This document shows positions 1 through 54,138 of a stretch of 64,000 nucleotides of DNA, piece after piece. The stretch is from an uncultured bacterium. Its GTDB lineage: Bacteria > Zhuqueibacterota > QNDG01 > DSAB01. The DNA lies in contig CAZIAH010000005.1 of NCBI GenBank assembly GCA_964537715.1, forward strand, positions 4,465 to 68,464. The letters run 5' to 3'. Position numbers and translations under genes: made by a program. The notes below the pieces were generated by a model. The model had not been told where the DNA came from. It made no database searches and was given only the letters and a program-made list of their open reading frames with translations. Numbering within the stretch: the first letter of the stretch is position 1; each line of letters opens with the position of its first letter.

Positions 1-1737
1 TCACGATCCGTTGAACAATACCGCTGCTATTTGTAACTGAGATCGCATTTTTACAGCCGGGAATCACATTGGAAACAATATAACGATCCCCTTTATGCTC
101 CACTGTCCCGCTCGTTGATTGGATTTCAGAAATTGTAGAGGCATCGAAACAGAATTCAGGCGTAATTCCAGGATTCTGGATGAAGAACCAATCCGTACGA
201 TCCCCCTGATCGATGCGGCATAAAGGTTGGGCTGTCGCATATTTTAGCAGCGTGCCATCCATATTTTTGTTGATTGGCCAGATAAAAATACAACTATCCG
301 GAATATCAACCGGTTTTGATGGAAACGCCAAATTTTCACCTGGCAACTGGATTTCAAACTGTACATTTTTCTGAACCGGTTTCTGCGCGCCGCGGTAATA
401 ATTCAATCCGAACAGGTAAGCCGAATTCCCAAGCGCGCGCACTGCGTATTGCAGCTCTTTTCGGGCGTCCCCATTCGTCGGAATCACCGGAAGCATCGGC
501 GCCAGTTCGTCCCCGAATTCATTGAGAAAATAGTGCAGTTTTTTGACTTCATGATATGATGGCGCCAGTTCACCTGTCTCGCGAATGGCGGCCTGAAAAT
601 CATAAGAGATGTCCGGATAGTCATTACTGTAACCGGTTTCATCCCGATTCTCCTCCAGAGTGGTGTAAATTCCCACGGGATTGATTCCGCCGGTAAATAC
701 ATAATAGCCCGGTAAGTTGCTGCCGGAACCAACGTTAACCGTGGCAATCGCCAGGCCATCGAATCGGCTGAGTACCGGTCTCCTGTGCCCGGACAGTTGA
801 TTGCCCACGCCCAGTTCGCACGTCAAATAGGGGTAGCGTGTGTAGTCGACCTGGTAACCTCCGAAACGCTCTGCTTCTCTGTTACCGATGGTCTCATCAT
901 TCATCGGCAATGAAAATGTAAAGCTCGAATTTTCTTCGATCTTGTCCGTATGCGCCGCCCATGGTTCAGCCGGATAGCTGCCCCATAGCGGAATCACCTC
1001 ATCTTTCGGCACAGATGCGGCACGCCAGCCTGTGACCGTGTATATCGGGACATCGAGTCCATATTTTAAAGCAGTTTGTTTTAACCAGCGGATATACTCC
1101 TCCCCCTGCTCGCCGCGCCAGTATTCATTCTCCAATTGGATGCCAATAACCGGACCGTCGTCTTTGTGCAAATACCCATGCAGCTGCTGAGCAATTTGAC
1201 TATACCATCGATCTGCATAAAACTGGTATACCGGATGATTCGTCCGGTTTTGCAGATTCTTTTTCTTAAAAATCCAATCGGGAATGCCGCCGTTGCGCAC
1301 TTCACCATGACACCAGGGACCAATCCGGGGCCAGGCATACAAATCATGTTTTTTGCACAATTTGATAAAGTCGCGCAGATCCTTGTTTCCCGACCAATCG
1401 AACTGTCCTTCAATTTCCTCATGGTGAATCCAGAATACGTAGCAGGCGATAATGTTAATGCCGTTGGCCTTCATCTTTAAGATTAAATCTTCCCAATGCT
1501 CTCTTGGACAACGAGAATAGTGAATTTCTCCCATCACCGGGATCACTGGTTTCCCGCTGAGCGTCAGGTATTGATTGTTTACAAGAATTTCCTGACCTTC
1601 AGGACCTGGGTGTCCCATTTTTAAATGCCCGGCCATAATTTGTTTGGGAGGTACCCGGGCGTCGATAGTGAAGGTTTTCGCGGAGATAGCACTAACAGCA
1701 ATTATTAGCATGCCTATTGTGAAGAGCATATTTTTCA
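1..1737 (-). CDS. Glycoside hydrolase family 35 beta-galactosidase, secreted; 3' end truncated by the window edge
   Basis: ATG at complement 1735-1737. Uninterrupted reverse-frame reading to position 1, with no stop in the window. N-terminal signal peptide MKNMLFTIGMLIIAVSAISA. GH35-type catalytic region PVIGIQLENEY and IGPWCHGEVRNGG. The ORF track lists no complete ORF here because the stop lies outside the window. Confidence 0.75.
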
Positions 1738-1764
1738 TGATATTTTCTCTAAAATATTTTCATT

Positions 1765-4653
1765 CTATTTCGGTCTTAAATCATTCGGACTATCGGATGT
1801 ATGAAAATTTAATTTATTCCTTTCTTTATTTGTAAAGATATCCTCAATAGTTTCAATATCAACATCAAATTTGGGTTGGAATTTTTGCGACGCTATATAT
1901 TTTTTCAAACTGTAGAACAATTGTCTTGCAACAATCCTTTCATCAGGATTTGTTTCCAAATCAGCGCTGCAAACCAGCAATTTCCCATTTAAAACATTGG
2001 CTTCGAATATCAATCCTAATCTGCGATTTAAAAACCAGGTGTCTATGGGTTGCACAATCGGACGAAATTCTGCCGGAAAATCATCGAGTATCATTACCTG
2101 TTGCTTGTGCAAAATTTCCCACCACTGCAAATTGCTGTGAAAATCAGTTGGGAAATCTGCGAACGCCGGATGTTCCGGGTTGCATAAAATGCCCAGCGTA
2201 TGCGGCGGCCGCATCTGGAACCATGATGTATTCCAGAATACCGGCCGGAAATATTGAACAACATCCTTGCCATTTTGGACTTTTCCTGCGCAAAGTAAAA
2301 GTACTTTTCCTCCCTTTTGCAGAACAGCTTTCGTTTCTTCATCAAATTCGTTGCTAATGGTTATATCTGTATTTATATCCGGCAGCTTTGCCGGATAGAC
2401 CCAGAAATCCCAGTCATTTTTATATTTCATTACTTTGACTTGCAGATTCAGCTTTGAAGCCTTTTTCACATTTAAAAGCGGCGCTTCCACAGTTCCCAAT
2501 TCAATGCCGTTTCCGATTGGAATGTCTTTGGCGCCCAGCTCGCCATTAAAGAGCAGATTGCCATGTTCATCAGTAATTTTCCATTGTGGTACAACGTGAT
2601 TAAGCGCTTCTTCACCAAAATGAGCAATTTCGATATCTGCTTTAAAGATTTCATTATTTGTATAAACAAATTTGGGTAAGCGTGCCAATGGCACGGTATA
2701 ATTGCAGAAACGTTTAAATCCTTCAGCCGTTATGTATCCTTTGTTGTCCCAGAAAACATCCAGCACGCCGACAAGCGCTGTGCCCTGCCCGGGGAAATCA
2801 TTCAGCGAAAGTAATTGTATTCCTGCTAATCCGCGCGTCCTCAAGGCTGCCTCAATCTCTGATTTATAACACAACGCCTGCAGTTTTCCGGACGCCATTA
2901 AAAAATCATTTGCTAAATCACTCATGTGATGATCGGCCAAATCTTCCTTAAAAAGCTCGAAATTGCGCGGTTCATAAACGCCCGTATATCTGTCCATTTC
3001 ATTGAAGTTTGGAAAGACACAATACTGCCCCATCTCATGAGCGACATAAGGGACGTTATATTTTGCGATTCTATCTTCATAATCGAAAAGGCTCTGTGGC
3101 CGTTCATCCCAGGGCAGTCCACGCGGCTCTGAACGCACAATATATTCGCTCTCAGGAACCAATGGCCAACTGCGCGCGATGGAGGCGCCTGTATATACTC
3201 GACGTTGATCTTTTTCTTTCCAGTGGTTGACAAAGTCGCCCAGATATTTCACTTGGTTATGACCTGCGGGTTCGTTGCCGTAAGCCATCATCACGAAAGA
3301 AGGATGATTCCCATAAGCGTCAACAATGCGTTCTGTTTCATCGTAAATATACTGATCGATGGGCTTACCGTCTCCGAGGGATGCGCCATGATTCGCCCAA
3401 CTTGCACCTTCGGGCTGCAAGTAAAATCCGGTTTTGTCCGCTGCATTGAAGGCAGCCTCCGGTGGACACCAGGAATGAAAGCGTATATGATTGAATCCAT
3501 ATTCGCGGCAGGTTTTAAAAATGCGCTCCCATGATCGGACATCTGTCGGCGGGCAGCCTGTTATTGGAAAAGCTGCGCAATCCACTGTTCCTCTTAGGAA
3601 GGTCTGTCTTCCATTTACTTCAAACCTGACGCCATTAACCTTAAACTCGCGCATGCCAAATTGAATCTCTTTTAAGGCTTTATTATTCAATTGATCAGCC
3701 AATTCTAAAGTAAGTTTGTAAAGCGCAGGATTAAATTCATCCCAGAGTTGAACTTCTTCCCCCATCGCATAATTGATTTTTATTATCGTGTCTGGCGTGT
3801 TGATGCTAATTTTCGTTGTAACAGATTTTATCTGATGTCTGGTATTCGAATTAAAAGATTTTGCAGATAATCGAACCGTACAAAGCGAGGATCGTTCATC
3901 CGGTTTGCTTATGTTCATAACCACTTTAACAGATTTTGTGTGTATATCGGGAAAAAGTTTAACATCCGCAAAATGGATCGGAGGCAAGGCTTCCAATTTT
4001 ATGCTGCCGACAATACCGTTCCAGTTTCCCTGTGTATGGTCGGTGAGGCTGTGCGAATCAGGACCGACGTTAATATCTTTGATGCGATTATCAACCCGAA
4101 TGACAATCGAATGCTTTCCCGGTGTTAAGCTTTTGCTTAGATCAAAGACGTGAGGTGTTGAGAGACTGTTTTGCAGTCCTTGTCTGATCGTATCTACCCA
4201 AACGATGGTTTCCCAGTGCGGACGTTCGAGGAACAATTTGATGGTCTTGTTTTCCCACGATTGTGGGATTGTTACCTCTTTACGATACCATGCAGATCCT
4301 ACATAATGTTTACGCGGCGTAAGCCAAAACGGAAATTTGATATTCCCGGGTTGTCGGTATTTTTTTAACCGTGGATCGAAAAACCAGGAGCTGTCGTAAA
4401 TAGTGCCTGTCCACCGGGTTGTCAATGACGGTTCATCACCTTTGTTGTTTTCCGCCATGGAACCGGGTAGTGTCATCTCATCGACTAAATCAAGACGATA
4501 CCATTCCTGCTTAATTCCAACATCTAAAGAATCAATCGCAAAATGCCATTTACCGGCAAGTGAAATGATATTTTTATGGTCCACATCACAACTCGCGAAC
4601 AAAATGATGATTGCAAAAAAGCTGACTGTTTTTAAAATGGATTTTTTAATCAT
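1765..4653 (-). CDS. GH2-like glycoside hydrolase (beta-galactosidase/beta-glucuronidase-type TIM barrel), lipoprotein
   Basis: ORF 1765..4686. Preferred ATG at 4653 gives MIKKSILKTVSFFAIIILFASC (lipobox). GH2 N-terminal sugar-binding signature (WYRKEVTIP..KLFLE..VWVD). TIM-barrel segment GFNHIRFHSWCPPE and acid/base motif AYGNEP. Confidence 0.7.
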   Translation of the reverse strand: MIKKSILKTVSFFAIIILFASCDVDHKNIISLAGKWHFAIDSLDVGIKQEWYRLDLVDEMTLPGSMAENNKGDEPSLTTRWTGTIYDSSWFFDPRLKKYRQPGNIKFPFWLTPRKHYVGSAWYRKEVTIPQSWENKTIKLFLERPHWETIVWVDTIRQGLQNSLSTPHVFDLSKSLTPGKHSIVIRVDNRIKDINVGPDSHSLTDHTQGNWNGIVGSIKLEALPPIHFADVKLFPDIHTKSVKVVMNISKPDERSSLCTVRLSAKSFNSNTRHQIKSVTTKISINTPDTIIKINYAMGEEVQLWDEFNPALYKLTLELADQLNNKALKEIQFGMREFKVNGVRFEVNGRQTFLRGTVDCAAFPITGCPPTDVRSWERIFKTCREYGFNHIRFHSWCPPEAAFNAADKTGFYLQPEGASWANHGASLGDGKPIDQYIYDETERIVDAYGNHPSFVMMAYGNEPAGHNQVKYLGDFVNHWKEKDQRRVYTGASIARSWPLVPESEYIVRSEPRGLPWDERPQSLFDYEDRIAKYNVPYVAHEMGQYCVFPNFNEMDRYTGVYEPRNFELFKEDLADHHMSDLANDFLMASGKLQALCYKSEIEAALRTRGLAGIQLLSLNDFPGQGTALVGVLDVFWDNKGYITAEGFKRFCNYTVPLARLPKFVYTNNEIFKADIEIAHFGEEALNHVVPQWKITDEHGNLLFNGELGAKDIPIGNGIELGTVEAPLLNVKKASKLNLQVKVMKYKNDWDFWVYPAKLPDINTDITISNEFDEETKAVLQKGGKVLLLCAGKVQNGKDVVQYFRPVFWNTSWFQMRPPHTLGILCNPEHPAFADFPTDFHSNLQWWEILHKQQVMILDDFPAEFRPIVQPIDTWFLNRRLGLIFEANVLNGKLLVCSADLETNPDERIVARQLFYSLKKYIASQKFQPKFDVDIETIEDIFTNKERNKLNFHTSDSPNDLRPK

Positions 4654-15552: not shown

Positions 15553-17580
15553 TCACTTAAGCAGTACCATTTGACGGGATTGACTGACTGTTTCTCCACC
15601 TGTATTTATTTCCATTCTGTAGATATAAACACCGGAAGCCGCAAAATCGTTGTAATCATTGCGCCCATTCCAGCTTATTTCAAAGGTGCCTGCAGATTGA
15701 TGCTGATTGATAAGCGTTCGCACCTTTTCTCCCTTCAGATTGTAGATGTTCAACCGGATATCGGCCGAAGTCGGTAATGAGTAACAAATGGTGGTTGACG
15801 GATTAAAGGGATTGGGATAATTCTCTAAAAGTGTGAAAGTGTCCGGGAAATCATTGTTGATGTGTTTAACAATAGTCGGGGTATTATTTATTTTCTGAAT
15901 GAGTTCAATACCTTCACCTGTACCCAGATTGCGGCTGTACTGTTTGTCTGTAGAATTATTCCAATGTTCGTGTACTCCCAGGCTTTCTAAGCGTGTGCCA
16001 TCGCCTTCCGGATCATAGAACGTTTCTGATGGTGGATTATCAGCCTGGGCCGCTTCATGAAGATAATTATCCGCAGTACCATCCGGTACGCCCCAGTCTG
16101 AGCACCTTAAAAAATCCAGCAGCACGGACTCCATAGCGACAAAATCCTGGCTCATGAACAGACTTGATGCCGGGCCGCCATTGAAGGGTTCTATCGACCA
16201 TGGTACTTTACGAAGACGTTCGGCTAACAACAGAAAGGTTTTCCCTCCCAGCTCTTTATGCCCCATAAGATCAACCAGTACATTGTAGGAACCCATTGGA
16301 AGCTCATGCCAGTTACCAAGGGTAAGGGCGGCAACCCCATAGTGCATAAAGTACGGACACCAGCCATGGTAATAATAAGAATTCGTTCCAGGAGGGTTGG
16401 GATGGTAGACCGAGCCGAAGAAGTTCTTGGCACAGCAGGTAACACCTGCTAGTTCATGAGCGCGCGGCAGACAAAAACTGATAAGATACTTTGCCTCTGA
16501 AGCTACTGTGGGCAGACATACCTTGCCGCTGCTACCCGGTACCAGAGTTGTATCGCTATAATATATCACACAGTTAGTATCGGGTACTACCTTTTCGCGG
16601 GTACCGGGATTATCGCCAGGGCCGTTTTCATAACCATGTCCATCAACACGGTCAGTGCAATCGCCTTCGGCCCAGCGCACACCCGGAAAGTCTGTATGAC
16701 AGTAGTTATATATGGGATCGCCATGATAGAAAACGCAATCATAGAAGGTAATATCCTCATCCGGCACGCCTGCTTTACTTACAAGATGCCAGATCAGAGC
16801 ATAAATCATTTGCGGACTATGCCGGTTTTCCTGATTGTCAGTCCATTCGTAAAAACGGGACTCAATATTATTGATTTTTATGGCAATTTTATCACCAGCC
16901 TGATAGCCTGTATTATCCTGGTTGTAACGCTCTTTATTGAAGTATTTGAAAAGGGAATCCCAAGCTTCGGTTGGATCGCTAATCCCTGTCATGTTGGTTA
17001 GCGCCAGGGTCATCATGTTCCGGGCGACTTCAGGATCGGTGCGCTCATCATCCCACCAATCCCCATCCTGCCTGCCTTGATCACAGAGTAGGCTGTCATA
17101 AACCCACACAACGCGTCCGGGATGAATCCCTTTGGCCGTACCTATCGGAGTATTGGGCGAATCAGTGGGGGTAAAATTTGTTGTACCGAAAATGTTTGCA
17201 GCTGATGCAGAAACATCGCGTATATCATTCATAGTGAAAAAACAAACCAGTACAGCCGTTACAAATGAGATTGCCCCAACGATATACTGCCGTTTTTGGA
17301 AGAGGTGACGGGCCTTACACACTATAAAAGTGGACCCCAACAATCCTAACAACCAGGTGATAAAACCCGCTGCTATTGGTTGTGCTACCCGTTGGCAGGG
17401 ATAGGCCGCGCGGCTGGGCTTGGGTACTACCCGGATAAGAACCCAGACAACAGAGGCCAGACCAATCACAATCCACAACCATGGCGTCTTTCCTTCTACT
17501 TTTTTAAGTCCGGTTATTTTACCGGTTCTGGAGCACACTGTGAACCGTTTCATGATCAGTCGTCTGATATTTGAAAACAT
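15553..17580 (-). CDS. Membrane-anchored protein with DUF362-like central domain and T9SS C-terminal sorting domain, function unknown
   Basis: 675 aa. ATG 17580 is preceded by the SD CAGGAGTAA. Three hydrophobic N-terminal segments (WLWIVIGLASVVWVLIRVV, IAAGFITWLLGLLGSTF, IVGAISFVTAVLVCFF). Central region with GDKIAIKINNIE and Cys/His-rich stretch. C-terminal LLENYPNPFNPSTTICYSL...LLK matches the T9SS CTD. Confidence 0.4.
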   Translation of the reverse strand: MFSNIRRLIMKRFTVCSRTGKITGLKKVEGKTPWLWIVIGLASVVWVLIRVVPKPSRAAYPCQRVAQPIAAGFITWLLGLLGSTFIVCKARHLFQKRQYIVGAISFVTAVLVCFFTMNDIRDVSASAANIFGTTNFTPTDSPNTPIGTAKGIHPGRVVWVYDSLLCDQGRQDGDWWDDERTDPEVARNMMTLALTNMTGISDPTEAWDSLFKYFNKERYNQDNTGYQAGDKIAIKINNIESRFYEWTDNQENRHSPQMIYALIWHLVSKAGVPDEDITFYDCVFYHGDPIYNYCHTDFPGVRWAEGDCTDRVDGHGYENGPGDNPGTREKVVPDTNCVIYYSDTTLVPGSSGKVCLPTVASEAKYLISFCLPRAHELAGVTCCAKNFFGSVYHPNPPGTNSYYYHGWCPYFMHYGVAALTLGNWHELPMGSYNVLVDLMGHKELGGKTFLLLAERLRKVPWSIEPFNGGPASSLFMSQDFVAMESVLLDFLRCSDWGVPDGTADNYLHEAAQADNPPSETFYDPEGDGTRLESLGVHEHWNNSTDKQYSRNLGTGEGIELIQKINNTPTIVKHINNDFPDTFTLLENYPNPFNPSTTICYSLPTSADIRLNIYNLKGEKVRTLINQHQSAGTFEISWNGRNDYNDFAASGVYIYRMEINTGGETVSQSRQMVLLK

Positions 17581-19108: not shown

Positions 19109-21292
19109 TTACAAATCAACAATTTGAATACCATGGGGTTCAAGGCTTACTTCAACCGTATTCCCTTTATCATCAAATACCTTTGTTGTTTCCACATAGT
19201 CACTGCTGCTTATGACAACAAGTTTTTTATTTTTGGGATACCAGGCACAGTCGGTTTGAACATTACTGCATGTCCATGCTTTATATTCCGGTTCCATCCC
19301 GGCGCTGGTAAAAAGTGATCGATGCAGTAGGCGTGAGTTTTCTGGTGAAAATTTAAATCCGGACAGGTAGATTGCTTTTCCTTTGCCGAATGAATGCAGG
19401 GTAATTTGTGGGGAACCATCTTTCTCTGCCAATACAGTTGTCTCTTTGCTAAGCACAAAAATGTTATCAATATCTTTACCAAAATCGATGTCGCCACTTA
19501 TATCTTCCAGAATAAAATGCTTTGATGAAGCCGTGACCGGCAATTTAACATTACACATCGTCAACCCAATTTCGCGGTCAACACCAAGCAGATGCGCCAA
19601 CTGGAAATATTGACTCGAACATTTTACCGCTGAGGGTTCACCGATTCCTATAAATCCGCCGCCATTCGCAACCCATTTGGTGATCGCTTCAATCACTTTC
19701 GCGTCTTTCCAGTAATCACCGCCGCTCCATGCGGTTCCACCCTTTCCGGCATTGATGATAACATCTGTACCTTCGGGAATGCCATTTTCCAGAATATCCC
19801 TGAAACCTGTAAACGAAACATCCACTGGTAATCCGGCAAGGGATTCCGTAACCTCATAAATTTCAACGCCGGGTATAAAGTGACCGACGTAATCCCATGA
19901 ACGCCATTTACCCCACGCAGTAAGAACAACAACTTTCAGCGGTGCAACATATGGCCCTCCATCTGCGTGAAATTGTTGAAACGTGCGGAACTCATTGGCA
20001 ATATGATCAATCGCTTCAACAAACTCAGGAAAGTCCTGCACAAGATGCAGGTAGCCACCCAAACCGATACGGTCAATGGGTATGCGAAGCAGACCGCGGC
20101 GTATGTTGGCCCAGAAATGCTTGGCATCCAGCGCCGGATCGCCTCCTTCCATAAAAGTTGGTTCGCCTTTTAAACCAGTTGGGAACAGGTAAGGATGCAA
20201 ACGCAGCTCTTTGGTTTTTACACCTTTCACACCTGCGCAAAGTCTGGCTTCAAACGCATTGAATACACACTTGATTAAACCATCAAATCCAAACTCTTTA
20301 TACCGATCGCCCCAGGGCTCGGTGCCAACCCAATGATCATCGTAAAACATATAAGCCACTTTACCGGATTCGTGGACTAAGTCAATACACTTGCGACCAA
20401 AACTGACGACAAACTCATTCATAAAATCCATCCAGTCCCACAAGCGGTCGGAAGGTACATTATGGCTGGAGCAGTAAGCACCGTTGCTGACAAAATCTTC
20501 ACTGGTCATCTGGTAGCCTTTGGTTTCGGCAAACAAACGCATGGCACGCGGGCTTACAGTCATCTCGTATGATCCCCAGTCGGCATAACGGAATTTCTGG
20601 ATTGAAGGATCGCCCCAGAACCAGGCAAAATTATAAAACAGGGATGTGAAGCGTACGATTTTTGTTTTGGGACGTTCATCAAGCCACTTTTTCAGTGTGC
20701 TGAGAATGGCTTCTTGCGCTTCCGGATAAATGGGATCGACGGGCATTTGGTGTTCGCGGTCACCCCAGTCATTGGTAATATGGTTGTACATGGAAATACC
20801 TTCCCATATACGGTAGGCTAAAAAGTTAATCGTGTATTTGTGCCACCTTTGGACATTTTTAATAGTCACACTACCATTCGTTGTATCAAATACCCATAAC
20901 TCTTTCGGTACTTCTTCGCCGGTCGTACGGTCAAACACCTGCCACCATGCTTTGGGATCATCATTGGCATTCACTTCAAATTGTTCACGGAAGAAACCTT
21001 TCAGCAAATCGATTGTAATCGTTTTACTTTCTGCCACTACCGGATCGCTCATCAGATAGTTCTGTTGAAGTTTATCACGATTTGCTTTGGCCCACTCGTT
21101 ATCTGAACGGATCAGGCATATTGTAGAATAGATGGGATAATCCGCCTGAATAATTTTTTCAGATAATTGTATGCCGTCACTATCGCGAATAGCATCTGCA
21201 CCCCAACGTTCCGCAAGTTCCAGGGTTAAATTTTCATATCCTGCCTCACCAGGCAAGGTAAAATTTCCTTTTAAATTCTGTTTATCAGTCAT
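19109..21292 (-). CDS. GH112 phosphorylase (lacto-N-biose / D-galactosyl-beta-1,4-L-rhamnose phosphorylase family), cytoplasmic
   Basis: 727 aa, no signal peptide. Many blocks recalled from Bifidobacterium LnpA are conserved: LELAERWGADAIRDSDG, VFDRTTGEEV, INFLAYRIWEGISMYNHITNDWGDREH, IVRFTSLFYNF, MTVSPRAM, HWVGTEPWGD, IDRIGLGGYLHLVQDFPEFVEAIDHIANEFR. Confidence 0.8.
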   Translation of the reverse strand: MTDKQNLKGNFTLPGEAGYENLTLELAERWGADAIRDSDGIQLSEKIIQADYPIYSTICLIRSDNEWAKANRDKLQQNYLMSDPVVAESKTITIDLLKGFFREQFEVNANDDPKAWWQVFDRTTGEEVPKELWVFDTTNGSVTIKNVQRWHKYTINFLAYRIWEGISMYNHITNDWGDREHQMPVDPIYPEAQEAILSTLKKWLDERPKTKIVRFTSLFYNFAWFWGDPSIQKFRYADWGSYEMTVSPRAMRLFAETKGYQMTSEDFVSNGAYCSSHNVPSDRLWDWMDFMNEFVVSFGRKCIDLVHESGKVAYMFYDDHWVGTEPWGDRYKEFGFDGLIKCVFNAFEARLCAGVKGVKTKELRLHPYLFPTGLKGEPTFMEGGDPALDAKHFWANIRRGLLRIPIDRIGLGGYLHLVQDFPEFVEAIDHIANEFRTFQQFHADGGPYVAPLKVVVLTAWGKWRSWDYVGHFIPGVEIYEVTESLAGLPVDVSFTGFRDILENGIPEGTDVIINAGKGGTAWSGGDYWKDAKVIEAITKWVANGGGFIGIGEPSAVKCSSQYFQLAHLLGVDREIGLTMCNVKLPVTASSKHFILEDISGDIDFGKDIDNIFVLSKETTVLAEKDGSPQITLHSFGKGKAIYLSGFKFSPENSRLLHRSLFTSAGMEPEYKAWTCSNVQTDCAWYPKNKKLVVISSSDYVETTKVFDDKGNTVEVSLEPHGIQIVDL

Positions 21293-21310: not shown

Positions 21311-24214
21311 TTAATTCAATTCTCCAAAATAAAAATACAATGTCCGTTCATAAGTACTGTCAATCGTATTCTTTTTACTTGTTGGCCCCATCTGTTCGGG
21401 ATGCATATTGATACGTGTTGCCATCTGTGTACAGGTTGGCGGAATAAAATCGAGAAACGAAATATCGCCTGGTGGCAAAGATGGATAAGATTCTTTCCCA
21501 CGTAGTGAATAAAATTCAAATAATCGAACGAATAAATCATCCTGTTTGCTGGCAATATAGATTCTACCTTCAACTGTGTTCAACTCCATCCAGGCAACAT
21601 CTGAAAAGTAACCCTTAAATTCCGGGTACTTCCACGGCGATGTGCCGGTGAAGGTATTATTGTATGCGTCCTCCCACACATTAAGAGTCACACCTTGCAT
21701 CCTGTTTTTCCAGACACGGTATGGACCATTACCGAGCCATTTGGCGCTCAACACAAACTCCTCAGGATAATTAAAGCTGACACCGCTAAAATTGTATTGC
21801 CCATGCAATTCATACGAATAGGTCATTTCCAGCCAGCCGCTTGGGAACAGCTCCCAGCGCACCGTTTTCATACCACCTTCATACGCCGTTTCAACCACAT
21901 AGCCACCTTTTTCCCGGTGATGTTTCAATCCTGTAAAAGTTGAATTTCCTGTGCAAAAAACCGGACCGTTATTGAAATGAATTTCACGGTCTTTTTCACT
22001 AATATTAATTTTAATGTGCGTTAATAAGCCGTTTAGTTTACTTAAAGTAAGAAACTTACTACCTACGGTTAACACAAGCGATGTATCGTTCTCATCGATG
22101 TCGATTGAATTTTCATCTTCTCTTTTCACAATGGATTTTATTAACGATTCGTTGTTTTGAATCTTCCAGGACCATGTGTAAATATCCTGTCCGGTTGGAT
22201 CGACAGCCTTCAATAGCAAAGCTTCTGCATTTTGCCAGTCATCCGGTAAGGAAAAATTTAAATGACCACTGGTGTGCGGTTTTATATCTACTCCATTAAC
22301 CGATCCTTCGTTGATCAGGTTATAGCCCTTCCGCGTCTCTTCCGGTTTGGGGAACTCTACTAATTTCCAGTTAAACGAGCACTGGTTGAGATTGATAAAA
22401 TCGAACCGGTTTTCCACAGGAATATTTCCGTCAAATGAATCCGGCAATTCATTCATTTCGATGTGAACAGGAGAAAAAATCTGCTTTATCGCATTGAAGC
22501 TGCCTTCCTTTTCACGATGTGGACCCAAAATGCCATCCGGGGCATTGACACCATTCACATCGATGATGCCGCCAAGATCGGTTCGGACAACGCCTTCATC
22601 TAATAACGCCCAAATAAATCCACCACCTGATTTCGCCGCTTTCCACATCAGTTCCCAGTAATCATACAACCCTGCGCCGCCACCCCCATCAAACTGGCTG
22701 TGCTGGAATTCCGTTGGCATATAAATATTCTCTTGCTTAAAAAGCCATTGCATGCCGCTGTACTTTTCATAATGATTGGTGTCAATATGATTAAAAGCAT
22801 ATCCCGGTTTAAAATGCGGATGAATCACTGTTCTGTTTGAAGGATCATATCTTAAGAAATCGTCATCCAACTCTTTATTGGTTCCCCCTTCATTGCCATT
22901 GCTCCAGAAAATCACCGAAGGATGATTCACATCGCGGATAACCATTTCACGAACCAATATTTCTCCAATCGCTGTATCATAAGCATTGTGCCAGCCAGCT
23001 AATTCATCAATTACATACAATCCAAGCGAATCGCAATAATCTAGAAAACTCTGATCCGGTGGATAATGTGAGCAACGCACGGCATTCATATTCATTTCTT
23101 TGATAAGCTTTACATCCATCAAATCGATGCCTTTGTTGAGACAACGTCCTGTTTCCGGCCAAAAGGCATGACGGTTGATGCCTTTCATTTTGACTTTAAC
23201 CCCATTAATATAGATACCATCTTCCGGCCGGACCTCTATCATCCGAAAACCAAATTTTTCCTTTGTTTGATAAAGAATATGTTCACTGTCTTTTAAATAA
23301 ATATCAGCCTTATATAAAGTTGGTGATTCACTACTCCACAGATATGGATCATTTAATTTTGTTCTTAGGGTTACTTTAGAATTGCCTTTGCCTGTCTTTA
23401 CAGAAATGGATTTTACAATCTTGTTCTCAGGCTCAATAATTTCTGCAATGATCTCTCTTTCATCCTGCACGTTTTGGGGAAAAACATCTATACTAAACGA
23501 ACCATCTGCTTTGGCCACGATAGCCGTTCGCTCAATGTGTTCCCTGGGATAGGCTTCTAAGTACACCGGACGAAAAATCCCACCGAAAATCCAATAATCT
23601 GCATAGCGTTCAGAGCGGTTCACGGATTCGTTGGATGACATCTTACTCACCATAACTTCAAGCTGATTGGACTTATCAAAATAAAGCGCATCGGTTATGT
23701 TATAAGTGAACCTGTAAAAAGCGCCCTGGTGCACATCGCCCGCAGATTGGCCATTAATTTTAACTTCCGTATCCGTCATAGAGCCTTCAAATACAATAAA
23801 TATCTCTTTGCCGCGCCATGATTCAGGAACGGAAAATGTGTGTTTATAAAGTCCTTCTTCATTCGCATATTTGAATTGCGGGCCATACGTATAATAATCT
23901 CGACCATAATTGTAACTGCCAAAACCCTGTTGTTCCCAATGAGACGGAACTTCAATTTTTGTCCAGTAACCGCTCTTGCGCCCGCCGGTACAGAAAAAAT
24001 CCCAGGTAACAGTTCTCTCATTATCGATTCCTGAAAGGTATTGAATCTGCTTTTCAGACGATGGTTTTGAAAAGATACTGACAGGGTATAAAGCGCAAGT
24101 AAGAATCAGAGTGAAAAAATAATTGATTAAAACCTTAATATTGTATTTACCTTTCTTGAAATCATTTCCAACCAAATCAAAAGCTCTAAGTAAAATAAAC
24201 TCTGACAAGGGCAT
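21311..24214 (-). CDS. GH2 beta-galactosidase-type glycoside hydrolase, secreted; start codon uncertain
   Basis: 967 aa. GH2 motifs GINRHAFWPETGRCL, VIFWSNGNEG and ELAGWH. Hydrophobic signal-like segment only after residue ~25 (NIKVLINYFFTLILTCALYPVSIFS). The annotated ATG (24212-24214) lies inside the loop of an upstream terminator hairpin. A TTG at about 24175 is an alternative start. Confidence 0.8.
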   Translation of the reverse strand: MPLSEFILLRAFDLVGNDFKKGKYNIKVLINYFFTLILTCALYPVSIFSKPSSEKQIQYLSGIDNERTVTWDFFCTGGRKSGYWTKIEVPSHWEQQGFGSYNYGRDYYTYGPQFKYANEEGLYKHTFSVPESWRGKEIFIVFEGSMTDTEVKINGQSAGDVHQGAFYRFTYNITDALYFDKSNQLEVMVSKMSSNESVNRSERYADYWIFGGIFRPVYLEAYPREHIERTAIVAKADGSFSIDVFPQNVQDEREIIAEIIEPENKIVKSISVKTGKGNSKVTLRTKLNDPYLWSSESPTLYKADIYLKDSEHILYQTKEKFGFRMIEVRPEDGIYINGVKVKMKGINRHAFWPETGRCLNKGIDLMDVKLIKEMNMNAVRCSHYPPDQSFLDYCDSLGLYVIDELAGWHNAYDTAIGEILVREMVIRDVNHPSVIFWSNGNEGGTNKELDDDFLRYDPSNRTVIHPHFKPGYAFNHIDTNHYEKYSGMQWLFKQENIYMPTEFQHSQFDGGGGAGLYDYWELMWKAAKSGGGFIWALLDEGVVRTDLGGIIDVNGVNAPDGILGPHREKEGSFNAIKQIFSPVHIEMNELPDSFDGNIPVENRFDFINLNQCSFNWKLVEFPKPEETRKGYNLINEGSVNGVDIKPHTSGHLNFSLPDDWQNAEALLLKAVDPTGQDIYTWSWKIQNNESLIKSIVKREDENSIDIDENDTSLVLTVGSKFLTLSKLNGLLTHIKINISEKDREIHFNNGPVFCTGNSTFTGLKHHREKGGYVVETAYEGGMKTVRWELFPSGWLEMTYSYELHGQYNFSGVSFNYPEEFVLSAKWLGNGPYRVWKNRMQGVTLNVWEDAYNNTFTGTSPWKYPEFKGYFSDVAWMELNTVEGRIYIASKQDDLFVRLFEFYSLRGKESYPSLPPGDISFLDFIPPTCTQMATRINMHPEQMGPTSKKNTIDSTYERTLYFYFGELN

Positions 24215-24230
24215 GAAACCCTTGTCAGAG
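24186..24230 (-). terminator. Rho-independent terminator downstream of the duplicated-domain T9SS protein gene
   Basis: Perfect 12-bp stem CTCTGACAAGGG / CCCTTGTCAGAG (24200-24211 and 24219-24230) with 7-nt loop. On the minus strand it is followed by UUUAUUUUACUU. 13 nt after the stop at 24243. Confidence 0.7.
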
Positions 24231-24242
24231 TTGTTGTCTTCC

Positions 24243-26558
24243 TTATTTCAGCAACATCATCTTCTTAACTTTAACGAAGTCACCAGATTCAATGCGGTAA
24301 AAATAGATACCAGATGAAAATGATGCAGCTTTGAATGAAACAGTGTAGACACCGGCAGCCTTTTCCTGATCTACTAATGTAGTAACAACTTGACCTAACG
24401 CATTATAGATCTTTAATGTTGTCTTGCCTGCTTTCGGTAAGCTATACTTAATAATGGTCTCCGGGTTAAACGGATTTGGATAGTTTTGCTCAAGAGCATA
24501 AACTGTCGGGATTGTACTGTTAGCTTCAGCAACCGAAGTCGGTTCTTCAACTTTCCCAAGCTCAGCCATACGGGCAACTTCATTGAAGAAGACTTGCTGG
24601 GCATCATCAGAGAAGTTATCGTAATTGAATGGGCCTGCTGCCGTTTCATAAAAATGGTCATTACCGTTTCCAATTAAAGTACGGTAGCCAGCAGCATAGT
24701 CACCCGCGCCATCGTAAAACTCTGTCCACGGATCCCAACGTACAAAGAACACATTGGAGTTGCTGGCAGAGCGCGCTAATACTGTGCCGTTACCGCCATC
24801 TGTGGTCACAATATAATCGTATGGAGTAGAACACCAATCCATCGTACTATCCGCTGCAAGAGTGGCACCGGCGAATACAGCATCATCCGGGGTTTCTATT
24901 TTGGCGCTAACGGTTTCACCAGCAACATCGTACGTAGTGATCGAGGTTGATTGTAGCCAGTTTAATCTGTTGCTGCGAGCAGCCCATGGCGTCATCAGCA
25001 CTAAAGGAGAAGTGATGGCGTTCCATGTCGGTTTTTTTGATGCATCAAAGTTTCCGCTAAGAGGTGAACGTGCGACGATAACCAAATCAGCAGCATTCAA
25101 AGTATCAATCAGGCCCTGGGAAGCTTGGCTAAGATCTGCGCTGAATACTGTGCTAACAGCATATCCCTGTGCTTCTAATCCATCAATTAAATATTGGTCA
25201 GCGTGTTCTTGTATATCAGGATTCATCTTGGCGGGATCGCTGAAAAGAACAATTTCTTTGTCCAAACCTACCGGTTTTTCAACTTTTCCAAGCTCAGCCA
25301 TACGGGCAACTTCATTGAAGAAGACTTGCTGGGCATCATCAGAGAAGTTATCGTAATTGAATGGGCCTGCTGCCGTTTCATAAAAATGGTCATTACCGTT
25401 TCCAATTAAAGTACGGTAGCCAGCAGCATAGTCACCCGCGCCATCGTAAAACTCTGTCCACGGATCCCAACGTACAAAGAACACATTGGAGTTGCTGGCA
25501 GAGCGCGCTAATACTGTGCCGTTACCGCCATCTGTGGTCACAATATAATCGTATGGAGTAGAACACCAATCCATCGTACTATCCGCTGCAAGAGTGGCAC
25601 CGGCGAATACAGCATCATCCGGGGTTTCTATTTTGGCGCTAACGGTTTCACCAGCAACATCGTACGTAGTGATCGAGGTTGATTGTAGCCAGTTTAATCT
25701 GTTGCTGCGAGCAGCCCATGGCGTCATCAGCACTAAAGGAGAAGTGATGGCGTTCCATGTCGGTTTTTTTGATGCATCAAAGTTTCCGCTAAGAGGTGAA
25801 CGTGCGACGATAACCAAATCAGCAGCATTCAAAGTATCAATCAGGCCCTGGGAAGCTTGGCTAAGATCTGCGCTGAATACTGTGCTAACAGCATATCCCT
25901 GTGCTTCTAATCCATCAATTAAATATTGGTCAGCGTGTTCTTGTATATCAGGATTCATCTTGGCGGGATCGCTGACAAGAACGATTTCTTTAGGATTCCA
26001 ATCAGTACTAGGATTAAAAGTATCGCTGGTTGTTACAATGATATGATCTATGGCAGCCCCTCTTTCTCTGAGATAAATTGTCAATGTATGAGCTCCTGCA
26101 GTAGGAATATTAAAGGAAGTAGGTCCCTTTACCCATTCCCATACTCCGTAACTTCCATGTGGAATCATATCGTTTTGACTAGCAATACTATCACCTAGGC
26201 CATAGTAGAATGAGTCATTCTGTCCATCAATAAAATACTTGCGGACCCAGATGTAGTGTGCGCCGGTTTTCGTGAAGTTTATATTATAAGATAAAGCAGG
26301 CGCATCAGTCTCAGCCGTTGTATTTGGATTATAAACTCCAGCATCCGTACCTTGCATATAGCTTGAACCTAAAAATCCTGCAAAAGTGGTTGAATCAGCA
26401 AAAGTATCACCCTTGGATCCATCGCGCAGCGAATCATAGTCTTCAGCCGGCATTGTGACTAAACCAAGAAAATCAGATTTCTGGGTGAAGTCGGCGTATG
26501 CGCTGCTAAAACAAAGCAGCACTAATGATAACAGAATGAAAGATAACTTATCTCGCAT
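24243..26558 (-). CDS. T9SS-secreted protein: N-terminal beta-sandwich (CBM-like) domain, two near-identical 244-aa alpha/beta repeat domains, T9SS CTD; no recognisable catalytic domain
   Basis: ORF track start is GTG 26636. Preferred ATG at 26558 is preceded by AAGGAGGAGGAA and gives signal peptide MRDKLSFILLSLVLLCFSSAYA. Internal 732-bp tandem duplication (see the repeat feature). C-terminal LEQNYPNPFNPETIIKYSL...LLK. Confidence 0.6.
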   Translation of the reverse strand: MRDKLSFILLSLVLLCFSSAYADFTQKSDFLGLVTMPAEDYDSLRDGSKGDTFADSTTFAGFLGSSYMQGTDAGVYNPNTTAETDAPALSYNINFTKTGAHYIWVRKYFIDGQNDSFYYGLGDSIASQNDMIPHGSYGVWEWVKGPTSFNIPTAGAHTLTIYLRERGAAIDHIIVTTSDTFNPSTDWNPKEIVLVSDPAKMNPDIQEHADQYLIDGLEAQGYAVSTVFSADLSQASQGLIDTLNAADLVIVARSPLSGNFDASKKPTWNAITSPLVLMTPWAARSNRLNWLQSTSITTYDVAGETVSAKIETPDDAVFAGATLAADSTMDWCSTPYDYIVTTDGGNGTVLARSASNSNVFFVRWDPWTEFYDGAGDYAAGYRTLIGNGNDHFYETAAGPFNYDNFSDDAQQVFFNEVARMAELGKVEKPVGLDKEIVLFSDPAKMNPDIQEHADQYLIDGLEAQGYAVSTVFSADLSQASQGLIDTLNAADLVIVARSPLSGNFDASKKPTWNAITSPLVLMTPWAARSNRLNWLQSTSITTYDVAGETVSAKIETPDDAVFAGATLAADSTMDWCSTPYDYIVTTDGGNGTVLARSASNSNVFFVRWDPWTEFYDGAGDYAAGYRTLIGNGNDHFYETAAGPFNYDNFSDDAQQVFFNEVARMAELGKVEEPTSVAEANSTIPTVYALEQNYPNPFNPETIIKYSLPKAGKTTLKIYNALGQVVTTLVDQEKAAGVYTVSFKAASFSSGIYFYRIESGDFVKVKKMMLLK
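24538..26001 (-). repeat. In-frame tandem duplication, two copies of 732 bp (244 aa), inside CDS 24243..26558
   Basis: Copy A about 24538-25269, copy B about 25270-26001. The copies are identical except about 5 substitutions clustered at the copy boundaries. Plus-strand antisense ORFs are duplicated with an offset of exactly 732 (24629/25361 and 24862/25594). Confidence 0.9.
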
Positions 26559-26758
26559 TTCCTCCTCCTTCATTTTGTTGTACGAGTTAATGTGATTCAT
26601 GACCTTTACTTCCTGAATTGTTATAAGAAATCTCACCTCCTTTCTTCAATAAATTTTTGATGAAAATATTAAAGCAAATGATAGATTTAAAAATAAATAT
26701 ATATTTGCCTTCACCGATAATCATACACCTGGCATATATTAATTATGGATGTACGAAC

Positions 26759-28456
26759 TTACTTTAAAAGTAGCATCTTCTTTTGAATCCAATAAGATCC
26801 TGATGAGTTTAAAATTTTTAAACGATAAAAATAAATTCCCGATGAAACTTGCTCCCCTGAATCATTTCTGCTGTCCCATTGTACTCTGAATTCACCTTCA
26901 TTCTGGTATTGTTGAGCAAGAGTCTTTACTTTTTGACCAGCACAGTTATAAACATTTAAAGTTACATGAGCAGGTTTATCCAGAGCATAACGAATTGTAG
27001 TTGTCGGATTGAATGGATTCGGATAATTCTGAAATAAGCTCATATTATCAGGCACGATTTTATTTTTATCCTCAACGGCTGTAGTGTTCTCAACTTCAAA
27101 TGCTCCAAGATCGGGTGCATTATTAAGAAAGGGGAATCCAATATCCACACCGGCGTCAATAATGGCACTTCCGGGAGCCGGACGTAAAAAATCAATGTCA
27201 GGTAAACTGCCATTCTCTTTGCGGGGCGACGTTAATAAATCCATATCAAGACTTATAAAATCGTCATCTGATAGAGTGATTGGCAAATCAAATGAATTGT
27301 ATTCCGAAGTATTTTGGGCGGTATCGATATACGCTGTATGCTTATATCCTATTACCTTCTGATAACTTAGGTTGTTTTTAAGCACATGATCATAGCCATC
27401 ACCGTCAATATTATCTGCATCGTCACGGCTTGGACGGTTTAACATATTAAAATTGGTTACATTCAGATAGGCTGAATTGTTGAACCAGTCATTTCCTGCT
27501 AAATGATGGTTAGAATAGAATCCATTAGCTTTATTCTTCACGGCAACACAAAACCTGACAGTATTTCTTGGAACCGGATCAGGGATTTTATCTGCTGTAT
27601 CATGCGCATATCCGCCTGCTTTAAAACCGTTTCCATCTCCCAGACTTTGAAAGTTTGATGAATATCCGTTATAAAAAGCCCAGCAACTGTCAAAAACAAC
27701 GGATTCATCGGCGCGGATAATATCAAAGCCGTCATCACTGTTAAACCAGGCGCGGCAGCCTCTAAAAACATTACCGGCGCCACCAGCATCGGGATGACAG
27801 CCAAAACCATCACAATTGCTGCCCAATCCATCTTCCGAAACATTATCCCAATTTCGATACGAATCACAATTTAAAAACAAATTGCCGCCACCTTTATAGT
27901 GACGCAGCCCGGTGCCAACATTGTTGTGCATGCTGATCTGTTCATATATATTATTATTCCCCCGGCTGTAAATACAATAAGACTCGGTGTGTGTTGTAAT
28001 GGTTACCTGAATGCCGGTCATTTCCAGCCCTTTAAGGTGAATATAACTTCCGGCCATCCAGATACCTACCACACGTTGATCGGCCGGCTTAACAGCGGAA
28101 AAATCAAAAACAGGCTGCTCACCCGGATATGCCCAGTACTTTATAGTTTGTCCGGCCAGGCCGCTTTTATCCAGATAACTAATACAGGCAAATAAATTCT
28201 GTTGAACGCTGGATATCTGGTTTTCCCGAACATTGTATAATCCGCCACGAATGTAAACTGTGTCACCTGGATTAACGAAGGTCTGAGCTTGTTGAATGGA
28301 TTCGACAGGTTGATCGATTGTTCCCGGATTTGAATCGTCTCCATCCGGCGCCACAAAATATTGAGATGCGAAAGAAAGATTTAGAATTGCCAAGATAAAT
28401 ATGGTGATTAAAATCAATCTCATAATTTCCCCATTTTTTTCAACTGGTTTTTTCAT
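26759..28456 (-). CDS. Right-handed beta-helix pectate-lyase-like protein (PL9-like candidate) with T9SS CTD
   Basis: 565 aa. Signal peptide. N-terminal YFVAPDGDDSNPGTIDQPVESIQQAQTFVNPGDTVYIRGGLY cap typical of PL9/pectate-lyase-fold proteins. Asn/Gly-rich coil repeats. C-terminal LFQNYPNPFNPTTTIRYAL tail. ATGA overlap with the downstream gene. An alternative ATG at 28423 is possible. Confidence 0.55.
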   Translation of the reverse strand: MKKPVEKNGEIMRLILITIFILAILNLSFASQYFVAPDGDDSNPGTIDQPVESIQQAQTFVNPGDTVYIRGGLYNVRENQISSVQQNLFACISYLDKSGLAGQTIKYWAYPGEQPVFDFSAVKPADQRVVGIWMAGSYIHLKGLEMTGIQVTITTHTESYCIYSRGNNNIYEQISMHNNVGTGLRHYKGGGNLFLNCDSYRNWDNVSEDGLGSNCDGFGCHPDAGGAGNVFRGCRAWFNSDDGFDIIRADESVVFDSCWAFYNGYSSNFQSLGDGNGFKAGGYAHDTADKIPDPVPRNTVRFCVAVKNKANGFYSNHHLAGNDWFNNSAYLNVTNFNMLNRPSRDDADNIDGDGYDHVLKNNLSYQKVIGYKHTAYIDTAQNTSEYNSFDLPITLSDDDFISLDMDLLTSPRKENGSLPDIDFLRPAPGSAIIDAGVDIGFPFLNNAPDLGAFEVENTTAVEDKNKIVPDNMSLFQNYPNPFNPTTTIRYALDKPAHVTLNVYNCAGQKVKTLAQQYQNEGEFRVQWDSRNDSGEQVSSGIYFYRLKILNSSGSYWIQKKMLLLK

Positions 28457-34958: not shown

Positions 34959-36359
34959 TTATGCTGACTTGATTTTAGATTTTTGAATCATCATGCTTAC
35001 AACTAAGTATACAATTGATGCCACAAACCACCCCGGAAGACCAAGGAAAAATATTTCGATACCCAAGGATCTATTAAGATAAACACTAAAACCAAGTGTT
35101 AACACCCAGGCCAGCGCAGCGGCAACATTAAAACTCTTATTAAATATTTCCGCATAATTGGATTTTAATCCCATTTTGGGAATGATATAAACATCCATGA
35201 GAATGACCGCTCCCATCGGCATCAGGATCAATCCATACAGAGCCACAAATTCCAATAACTTCATAACCAATGCCGGGAAAAGGGCTGCTGTGGTTGTTAT
35301 TGCTCCAACAACGGCCGTTACACGCCATGTTTGCCAGGATGGTTTGATGGCTTGCAAAGCCAAACCGGCCCGGTAAATTGTTGGATTAGCCGTTGTCCAT
35401 CCGGCGATGACCACACACAAGGCTCCAGCGATACCAGCCGCACGAAAAGCAACAGGACCAGGGGCAAATTGAGTACTGCCTGCAGATTCCAGAAGGAAAA
35501 GCGAATATAAAATTCCGGACGCCAGCCATGCGATATAATGCCCCAAATACATACCTGTTGCCGAAGAGAGACCATAATACCATTTTTTGGCATAACGCAA
35601 AATAGAGAGATCGGCCATACCTATGTGCATCGCCATATTGACAAACCAGGCGAAAAAGAGCACATGCCAAAAAGTGAATTTACTCTGACCAGCAAGCGGT
35701 GTACCTGTCCAAATGGTATCATTTGCTTTTGTCCAAAAATCTGACAGAGAGTGAACGCCCAAATCCGGCAAAACAGCAACAGCTGCTGCTACAAATACCA
35801 TTATCATCCAGGGAGCGGCTATATTTGCAACCCTTGAGATTTGAGTATAACCAAACATGGCAACAAGTGTGGTCACAATTCCTACAGCGAGAACAGTAAC
35901 AACCCAGCTTACGCTATTTGGATAGAAATCATTTAATGAAGGCATTGCCATATGAAAAGGAATACCAACTGCTGTTGCCGACACGGCAATCATTGAACCG
36001 GCAAGAAAACAAAACATAAGCGCATTTACTATGTTATAAATTGATGTAACTTTTTTTCCGCCGATTTTTTCAAGTAAATAATAAAGAGTCAATCTTTTTT
36101 GGGTAGCAACCGGACCGGTAATAAAAGCCCAGCTTAAAACAGCTAACAGATTTCCCAGTAACAGACCTAAAATTAAATCACCTGCTGCAACGCCATGTGC
36201 TACGAACAGTGGTCCAATAACAAATTCTGTCCCAGCCGTATGTTCGCCTGCGTACATTCCGATAAAACTTCCCCAACCTTTCCGGCTTTTTTCCGGAACC
36301 GGGATTCGCTCAAATTCCTCAACAGAATCCAACTGCCCTTTAATTGATTTTTTTGCCAT
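34959..36359 (-). CDS. NCS1-family permease (cytosine/purine/uracil/thiamine/allantoin permease family)
   Basis: 466 aa. 12 TM segments. N-terminal PEKSRKGWGSFIGMYAGE...LLGNLLAVLSW aligns with the CodB-type P..SRKG...LIGNLLL block. SD GAGGAGAAAAGT before the ATG. Confidence 0.65.
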   Translation of the reverse strand: MAKKSIKGQLDSVEEFERIPVPEKSRKGWGSFIGMYAGEHTAGTEFVIGPLFVAHGVAAGDLILGLLLGNLLAVLSWAFITGPVATQKRLTLYYLLEKIGGKKVTSIYNIVNALMFCFLAGSMIAVSATAVGIPFHMAMPSLNDFYPNSVSWVVTVLAVGIVTTLVAMFGYTQISRVANIAAPWMIMVFVAAAVAVLPDLGVHSLSDFWTKANDTIWTGTPLAGQSKFTFWHVLFFAWFVNMAMHIGMADLSILRYAKKWYYGLSSATGMYLGHYIAWLASGILYSLFLLESAGSTQFAPGPVAFRAAGIAGALCVVIAGWTTANPTIYRAGLALQAIKPSWQTWRVTAVVGAITTTAALFPALVMKLLEFVALYGLILMPMGAVILMDVYIIPKMGLKSNYAEIFNKSFNVAAALAWVLTLGFSVYLNRSLGIEIFFLGLPGWFVASIVYLVVSMMIQKSKIKSA

Positions 36360-54121: not shown

Positions 54122-54138
54122 CACATCCTCCATTTTAT

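Follow-up and report, generated by a model that had tools for sequence, protein, structure and literature searches.

The stretch of DNA analysed here, referred to as the window, comprises 64,000 nucleotides (nt) of contig CAZIAH010000005.1 (assembly GCA_964537715.1, positions 4,465 to 68,464 of the forward strand), from an uncultured bacterium placed in Zhuqueibacterota. Every long gene of the window is encoded on the minus strand, and together these genes make up a rhamnogalacturonan-I utilisation locus. We focused our investigation on one of these genes, located at 24243 to 26558, which encodes a secreted protein of 771 amino acids (aa) carrying two nearly identical units of 244 aa in tandem. 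From the N-terminus, the protein consists of a predicted signal peptide, a probable beta-sandwich, two units with a predicted ThuA-like fold and a C-terminal T9SS (type IX secretion system) domain. The features of the gene are as follows.

24243 to 26558, minus strand: gene of the 771-aa secreted protein, within the open reading frame (ORF) 24243-26636; stop codon at 24243-24245.
26561 to 26570, minus strand: ribosome-binding site, read from the sequence as AAGGAGGAGG and lying 2 nt upstream of the ATG.
26493 to 26558, minus strand: predicted signal peptide MRDKLSFILLSLVLLCFSSAYA, from inspection of the translation by eye.
25992 to 26492, minus strand: putative N-terminal beta-sandwich, GH115_C-like or CBM6-35-like.
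25260 to 25991, minus strand: unit 1, aa 216-459 of the 797-aa ORF; shared with unit 2 over 25272-25991, perfect tract 25288-25975.
25260 to 25271, minus strand: inter-unit linker, encoding VGLD of KPVGLD, from the mismatch table and boundary alignments.
24528 to 25259, minus strand: unit 2, aa 460-703; shared with unit 1 over 24540-25259, perfect tract 24556-25243.
24246 to 24482, minus strand: T9SS type A C-terminal sorting domain, matched by PF18962 and TIGR04183 at aa 719-794.

The start codon is likely the ATG at 26558, which is preceded by AAGGAGGAGG. The exact 771-aa product from this ATG was present in a public protein collection, and the products of two other starts were absent from it. 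The predicted signal peptide MRDKLSFILLSLVLLCFSSAYA is followed by DF, an N-terminal pattern common to the orthologues (for example MNYKFSFIFLSLMLLFFGSAYA in the metagenome locus L022). Four relatives of the N-terminal domain were found by a word-indexed homology search, none was found when its profile was compared with PDB sequences, and a structure model built from 5 sequences reached a predicted local distance difference test (pLDDT) score of only 60. The T9SS tail scored above the curated cut-offs of both models (PF18962, 47.6 bits against a cut-off of 27, E 2.1e-12; TIGR04183, 52.4 bits against a cut-off of 23, E 3.8e-14). The gene probably encodes a cell-surface protein exported by the T9SS. 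No known catalytic domain was detected by Pfam or NCBIfam in the whole protein.

Base-by-base comparison at an offset of 732 nt showed that window positions 24540-25259 and 25272-25991 are identical at 716 of 720 bases. All four mismatches (25983/25251, 25976/25244, 25287/24555 and 25277/24545) lie no more than 16 nt from the ends of the tract, and between them the copies share 688 nt with no mismatch (25288-25975 and 24556-25243). Identity in the flanks at the same offset was 13-43% per 30-nt window, and chance identity there was put at 17-30%. The linker at 25260-25271, which supplies the 12 nt remaining in the period, differs at 10 of 12 positions from its counterpart after unit 2 (24528-24539). 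Read on the minus strand, both copies keep the frame, and the two 244-aa units differ at six residues, five of which are among the last six. A repeat finder gave two copies at a spacing of 732 nt; Tandem Repeats Finder reported no repeat, its maximum period of 500 being below the period of this one. Two plus-strand ORFs within the repeat, 24862-25356 and 25594-26046, were rejected as genes, since Pfam matched neither of them and both mirror the repeat. No encoded product of the opposite strand of the repeat region was found, and no Rfam family occurred in 23500-27500.

An earlier reading made from the sequence alone had described a near-perfect in-frame duplication of 732 bp, encoding a 244-aa domain, at 24538-26001, with the differences confined to the junctions. 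Both the description and the position hold, the coordinates to within about 10 nt, and the peptide segments that it quoted (EIVLVSDP, GYAVSTVF, ADLVIVARS and PLVLMTPW) are present in the translation. The T9SS tail, the lack of a recognisable catalytic domain and the pectin locus that it proposed were likewise borne out by the domain searches and by the rhamnogalacturonan-I gene set of the window. It had also called the unit an alpha/beta domain that it did not recognise, in agreement with our searches of the sequence models and with the predicted fold described below.

No Pfam or NCBIfam model matched the unit, and neither the unit nor the protein as a whole gave a Pfam family of this fold (ThuA, GATase, GATase1_like, Glyco_hydro_42M, DUF4350 and similar models) at E≤1. 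These searches returned Turandot and PTS_EIIB below cut-off, and both were rejected as noise. Among PDB sequences, no relative of the whole protein was found, and a profile of 13 units detected none of the ThuA/GATase1 fold at E≤10. The family is nevertheless large. A word-indexed search had given 15 relatives only, from which the family would have been taken as very rare. When 1.84 billion cluster representatives were searched exhaustively with a profile, 1255 were matched at E≤1e-3, 970 of them at E≤1e-10, so that the family comprises at least 1255 clusters at 50% identity. In 162 proteins the units were counted: 80 had one, 54 had two, 15 had three and 5 had four. The highest identity between units of the same protein lay between 27 and 96% (median 59%). 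The repeat in the window thus stands at the far end of a continuum along which units are recurrently duplicated and homogenised.

In an alignment of 230 units, D21, D58, R64, S68, W79, P85, R95, R98, N157, Y182 and R193 were conserved at 83% or more, with R64 reaching 98%, S68 97%, R193 95% and R95 91%. No Cys or His position reached 50% conservation in the same units, which indicates that the Cys-His-Glu amidotransferase triad is absent. The window unit keeps the consensus residue at every position conserved at 80% or more. The units of the window have diverged unusually fast, and all of the family-conserved residues are kept. Structure prediction gives the unit a ThuA-like, class I glutamine amidotransferase (GATase)-like fold, a three-layer alpha/beta arrangement superposable on ThuA or GATase1 structures. 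Judged from strand order alone, the conserved polar residues appear to sit where this fold normally has its active site, R64 and S68 after strand 3 and R95 and R98 after strand 4. Failing both the sequence-model and the catalytic-triad tests, the unit is filed as a member of no described family, and no description of the domain in pectin or T9SS contexts was found in the literature.

The domains that accompany the unit were recorded in 49 further family members. The T9SS tail was the most frequent partner (24), followed by Laminin_G_3 (8), cadherin-like domains (8) and pectate lyases (3); CBM9, PA14, F5/8C, Ig, dockerin and PEP-CTERM were also present. Some members stand alone, with a signal peptide, the unit and a T9SS tail only. 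In the window, the repeat gene is preceded by a pectate lyase gene.

26759 to 28456, minus strand: upstream neighbour, PL9-type pectate lyase with a T9SS tail; Pfam Pel9A-like_beta_helix, 300 bits.

A related arrangement was seen in the KSB1 locus L008 (9230-12337 of the metagenome-assembled genome (MAG) contig JACKDE010000001.1), in which a single protein contains a GH115_C-like beta-sandwich, one unit, a PL9 domain and a T9SS tail. Its PL9 domain is 70% identical to that of the lyase adjacent to the repeat gene. As read from these sequences, the gene fusion links the unit to pectate lyase function. Over the family, the lyases to which the unit is fused are of the PL9 and PL1 types.

Several known systems may be compared with the unit. 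Its fold resembles those of ThuA-like proteins (PDB 1T0B, 4JQS and 4E5V; Pfam ThuA) and of class I GATase-like proteins (STM3548, 2GK3; 3RHT), with a sequence identity of 6-14%. Unlike these proteins, the unit lies outside the cell, occurs in tandem copies, has T9SS or PEP-CTERM as its anchor and conserves no Cys-His-Glu triad. Accessory GATase1-like domains in glycoside hydrolases (the GH42 middle domain, GH164 and GH112) and the GIFT domains of GldG, IFT52 and OST48/Wbp1 are further related systems. In GH42, the GATase1-like domain serves oligomerisation beside a catalytic barrel. By contrast, most members of the unit family have no catalytic domain, and the unit also occurs alone with a secretion tail. 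The levan-binding domain at the C-terminus of the surface glycan-binding protein SGBPlev (BT1761), from the levan utilisome of Bacteroides thetaiotaomicron, is reported to resemble the ThuA-like protein 1T0B (PMC7618045). This domain is ThuA-like, as the unit is, and offers a structural precedent for glycan binding, although the resemblance between the two is indirect and SGBPlev was not among the best fold matches of the unit.

In our reading, the protein is most likely a non-catalytic, multivalent surface binder of anionic pectic polysaccharide, and the multivalent binding suggested by the sequence-only reading is plausible. The arginine-rich site of the units would recognise a uronate-containing polysaccharide. 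Two such units together with the CBM-like domain would give multivalent capture at the cell surface beside the PL9 lyase, and the binder would work with that lyase and with the TonB-dependent transporter of the locus. Binding is favoured over catalysis because the units form tandem arrays, have partners of the binding type and are attached to complete lyases, because no catalytic set of residues is recognisable, and because SGBPlev provides a precedent.

A serious rival is that the unit is the catalytic domain of a new family of pectin-acting enzymes, such as esterases, lyases or enzymes of 3-keto-sugars as in the ThuA pathway. The very strong conservation of R64, S68, R193 and R95, and the position of such polar residues at the apparent active site of the fold, would suit an enzyme, as would the lack of another catalytic domain in most family members and the stand-alone versions consisting of signal peptide, unit and T9SS tail. 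However, without a conserved Cys or His the unit has neither the amidotransferase triad nor a Ser-His-Asp triad. Arrays of two to four units, with LamG, cadherin-like, CBM9, PA14 and F5/8C partners, are typical of binding or adhesion modules, and in three cases the unit is appended to a pectate lyase that is already complete. We regard an enzymatic role as somewhat unlikely and the binding role as the better explanation.

An independent assembly was available as the Logan contigs of run SRR14802572 (k=31). Two of these contigs, L023 and L024, carry the neighbouring PL9 and GH2 proteins and match the window with 0 mismatches. L023 runs from 36821 down to 25946, where it ends at the last 31-mer holding the unit-1-specific base 25976. 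L024 starts at 24585, the first 31-mer holding the unit-2-specific base 24555. The 30-mers adjoining both break points each occur twice in the window. A de Bruijn graph breaks exactly at the borders of the repeat only if the reads offer two ways into the shared core and two ways out of it. The linker joining the units also has orthologous counterparts in other genomes, and no assembler could invent it. On the evidence of these contig sequences, at least two units are real. The break points of an independent k-mer assembly can show that a perfect repeat is real without recourse to the reads, and the approach may apply elsewhere.

The number of units deserves a separate comment. The true array could consist of three or more identical units that the assembler collapsed to two, or the number could vary within the population. 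A middle unit placed between two identical linkers adds no new k-mers and would be invisible to either assembly, and the orthologues carry one, two or three units. A perfect direct repeat of 720 nt is a good substrate for RecA. Nothing positive points to a third unit, however, and the deposited contig has two. We consider a larger or variable array unlikely.

To follow the history of the repeat, the relatives of the protein were compared. A scan of one genome per species gave 16 loci encoding relatives, and the orthologues were located in similar loci. The Melioribacter sp. isolates Ez-97 and OK-6-Me (L007 and L009) have the architecture of the window, with two units and the junction ...PPRPVGLGK..., and the units within each gene share 62-75% protein identity and about 69% DNA identity. 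The metagenome locus L022, whose N-terminal domain is the closest relative of that of the window (66% identity), has three units with a period of 732 nt and two identical ...PPKPVGLGK... junctions. Single-unit relatives are found in L005, L006 and L008. Thus orthologous loci, whose copy number the sequence-only reading had proposed to compare, carry one, two or three units. The diverged units of relatives are 69-78% identical in DNA sequence.

The junction KPVGLDK of the window (21 nt) is identical to that of L022 at 16 of 21 positions, and to the window's own linker after unit 2 at 9 of 21; the inter-unit linker matches neither flank of the array. In the orthologues, internal units end with LP[AE][AP]PP[KR]PVGLG and terminal units with LGKV[PE]..PVSV. 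Unit 1 of the window ends with LGKVE followed by KPVGLD, a chimera of a terminal-type tail and an internal-type linker. The fact that the linker is orthologous to KPVGL[GD]K of relatives with diverged units indicates that the two-unit architecture is ancestral, and the chimeric tail of unit 1 indicates that, at the 3' end of the tract, unit 2 was the source and unit 1 the recipient. Most simply, the gene inherited its two units, and recombination recently rendered them identical along 688 nt or more: the junction is older than the identity, the differences lie only at the edges of the tract, and one end of the tract is chimeric.

The probable course of events is as follows. An ancestral gene would have had two diverged units joined by a KPVGL[GD]K linker. 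Intragenic homologous recombination, whether by gene conversion or through an unequal crossing-over cycle of expansion and contraction, would then have overwritten one unit, and the original linker and a few differences at the edges would have been left behind. RecA would be expected to act on the resulting 720-nt direct repeat, so that units may be lost or gained and their number would be unstable. Signs of a similar process were seen in L022 (6016-9051, contig Ga0315555_1004042), in which DNA identity is about 90% or more between the two junction regions and about 70-80% between the unit bodies, which suggests local homogenisation around the junctions there as well. In L006 (4879-6801, MAG contig JAJYIL010000086.1), the single unit is followed by a region of about 270 aa starting with KKIAYVTNKDVV. 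This start is unit-like, and the region, which was not detected as a unit, may represent either a unit that has diverged very far or a different domain with this fold.

One alternative is that a single ancestral unit was newly duplicated in tandem, very recently and independently of the two-unit genes of relatives. The young age of the copies, and not homogenisation, would then account for the 688 consecutive identical bases, and the single-unit orthologues L005, L006 and L008 show that the number of units changes in this gene family. But a simple duplication would join the two flanks at its junction, and the 12-nt linker matches neither of them. The identity of the junction to that of L022, the KPVGL motif shared with Melioribacter and the 732-nt period common to the window and L022 also argue against this explanation, which we consider very unlikely. 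Of the origins named in the sequence-only reading, ongoing gene conversion is the best supported, while a very recent duplication does not agree with a linker shared with relatives whose units have diverged. The assembly artefact that it had also raised, identical copies made by the assembler from one unit or from two diverged units, is highly improbable: the repeat is longer than short reads and the exact 771-aa product was recorded from the NCBI assembly only, its neighbours being recorded from the Logan assembly too, but the Logan breaks at the k-mer boundaries of unit-specific bases require both versions of each border in the reads, the linker is orthologous to those of other genomes, and copies at 69-78% DNA identity, as in relatives, would not be merged.

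Taken together, the data are probably best explained by a T9SS-exported surface protein in which two ancestral units of a ThuA-like-fold family have been homogenised and serve as a non-catalytic, multivalent pectin binder. Several points weigh against parts of this explanation. A Logan contig spanning the junction was not recovered, and look-ups of the predicted partial products (34 aa for the junction; 228 and 223 aa for the core) were empty. More than two copies may be present as a collapsed loop, the support consisting of contig break points. The conserved polar residues would fit a catalytic site equally well. The direction and mechanism of homogenisation, conversion or expansion and contraction, are read from a short chimeric tail. 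A neighbor-joining tree of the units revealed no donor and placed the window units on a long branch. Identity of the window units to every orthologous unit is unusually low at 55-62%, although the N-terminal domain matches that of L022 at 66%. For comparison, most units of Melioribacter, DBS2 and KSB1 share 72-79% identity with those of L022, unit 2 of OK-6-Me being at 65%.

Recombination among the tandem units of a surface protein is a familiar process, and it accounts for the near-identity of the units. Domain repeats of bacterial surface proteins are well known to evolve in concert, and the window repeat behaves likewise. The alpha C and Rib proteins of group B streptococci, and SasG/Aap, have nearly identical long tandem repeats that are kept alike by recombination. 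As in the window, these are in-frame repeats of folded domains in surface-anchored proteins, near-identical in DNA sequence, with a number of units that varies between relatives. In contrast, those proteins are adhesins of Gram-positive bacteria, with many copies of units of about 80-130 residues and with roles in immune evasion or biofilm, whereas the window protein has two units, each of 244 residues, and is encoded in a polysaccharide-degradation locus of an FCB-group bacterium from the environment.

The interest of the locus therefore lies in the unit family and not in the near-identity: the recombination is ordinary, and the family is large, undescribed and worth biochemical study. Its members, encoded in pectin loci, are surface proteins of bacteria that degrade polysaccharides and do not belong to the well-studied gut Bacteroides. 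A broader proposal, which is tentative though possible, is that the unit founds a new ThuA-like-fold family of glycan-binding modules or enzymes, specific for anionic polysaccharides such as pectin, in Ignavibacteriota, KSB1, Calditrichota, Bacteroidota and Planctomycetota. Intragenic recombination would keep the units alike and vary their number (one, two or three among the orthologues), and so would tune avidity at the surface. Should the unit prove to bind or cleave the glycans of pectin, a new carbohydrate-binding or carbohydrate-active family would be established, and the case would show how glycans are captured by T9SS-using bacteria without SusD-type systems.

The locus contains many other genes for the use of rhamnogalacturonan-I, which we list in three parts.

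Window, minus strand, part 1: RhaA-like isomerase, LacI regulator, TonB-dependent receptor, GDSL esterase, GH2, GH115, PL11 with a T9SS tail.
Window, minus strand, part 2: rhamnulokinase, aldolase, LutABC, GH88, PcRGLX-like protein, DUF4861, DUF6250, PL9, the repeat gene.
Window, minus strand, part 3: GH2, GH112, MFS, GH28 (two copies), GH78, GH106, GH88 with a T9SS tail.
24198 to 24232, minus strand: terminator-like hairpin with a 15-bp stem and a T-rich tail, directly after the stop codon of the repeat gene.

The hairpin overlaps the start (ATG 24214) of the downstream GH2 gene. Compared with Melioribacter, the proteins of the neighbouring genes show about 59-71% identity, which makes a relative within Ignavibacteriota likely. 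The T9SS tail model is matched by five proteins of the window, at 24243, 26759, 41539, 52415 and 4793, the matches of 26759 and 4793 being just under the cut-off (27.0 and 26.6 bits, respectively).

A protein of about 570 aa, in which the T9SS tail is the only recognisable part, follows a TonB-dependent receptor in the window (52415-54133 by 54343-57339, both on the minus strand), and the same pair was found in L005 (3826-5535 by 651-3635). No SusD-type gene was seen among the ORFs scanned. This protein may be a surface partner of the TonB-dependent receptor.

Two proteins lie among the pectin enzymes: a 466-aa protein with no Pfam match (34959-36359, minus strand) and a 675-aa protein with a weak DUF362 match and a FlgD_ig-like C-terminus (15553-17580, minus strand). 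A GH112 phosphorylase, matched by the lacto-N-biose phosphorylase family at 646 bits, is encoded inside the locus at 19109-21292 on the minus strand. The GH112 family includes galactosyl-rhamnose phosphorylases, and such an activity would fit the breakdown of rhamnogalacturonan-I.

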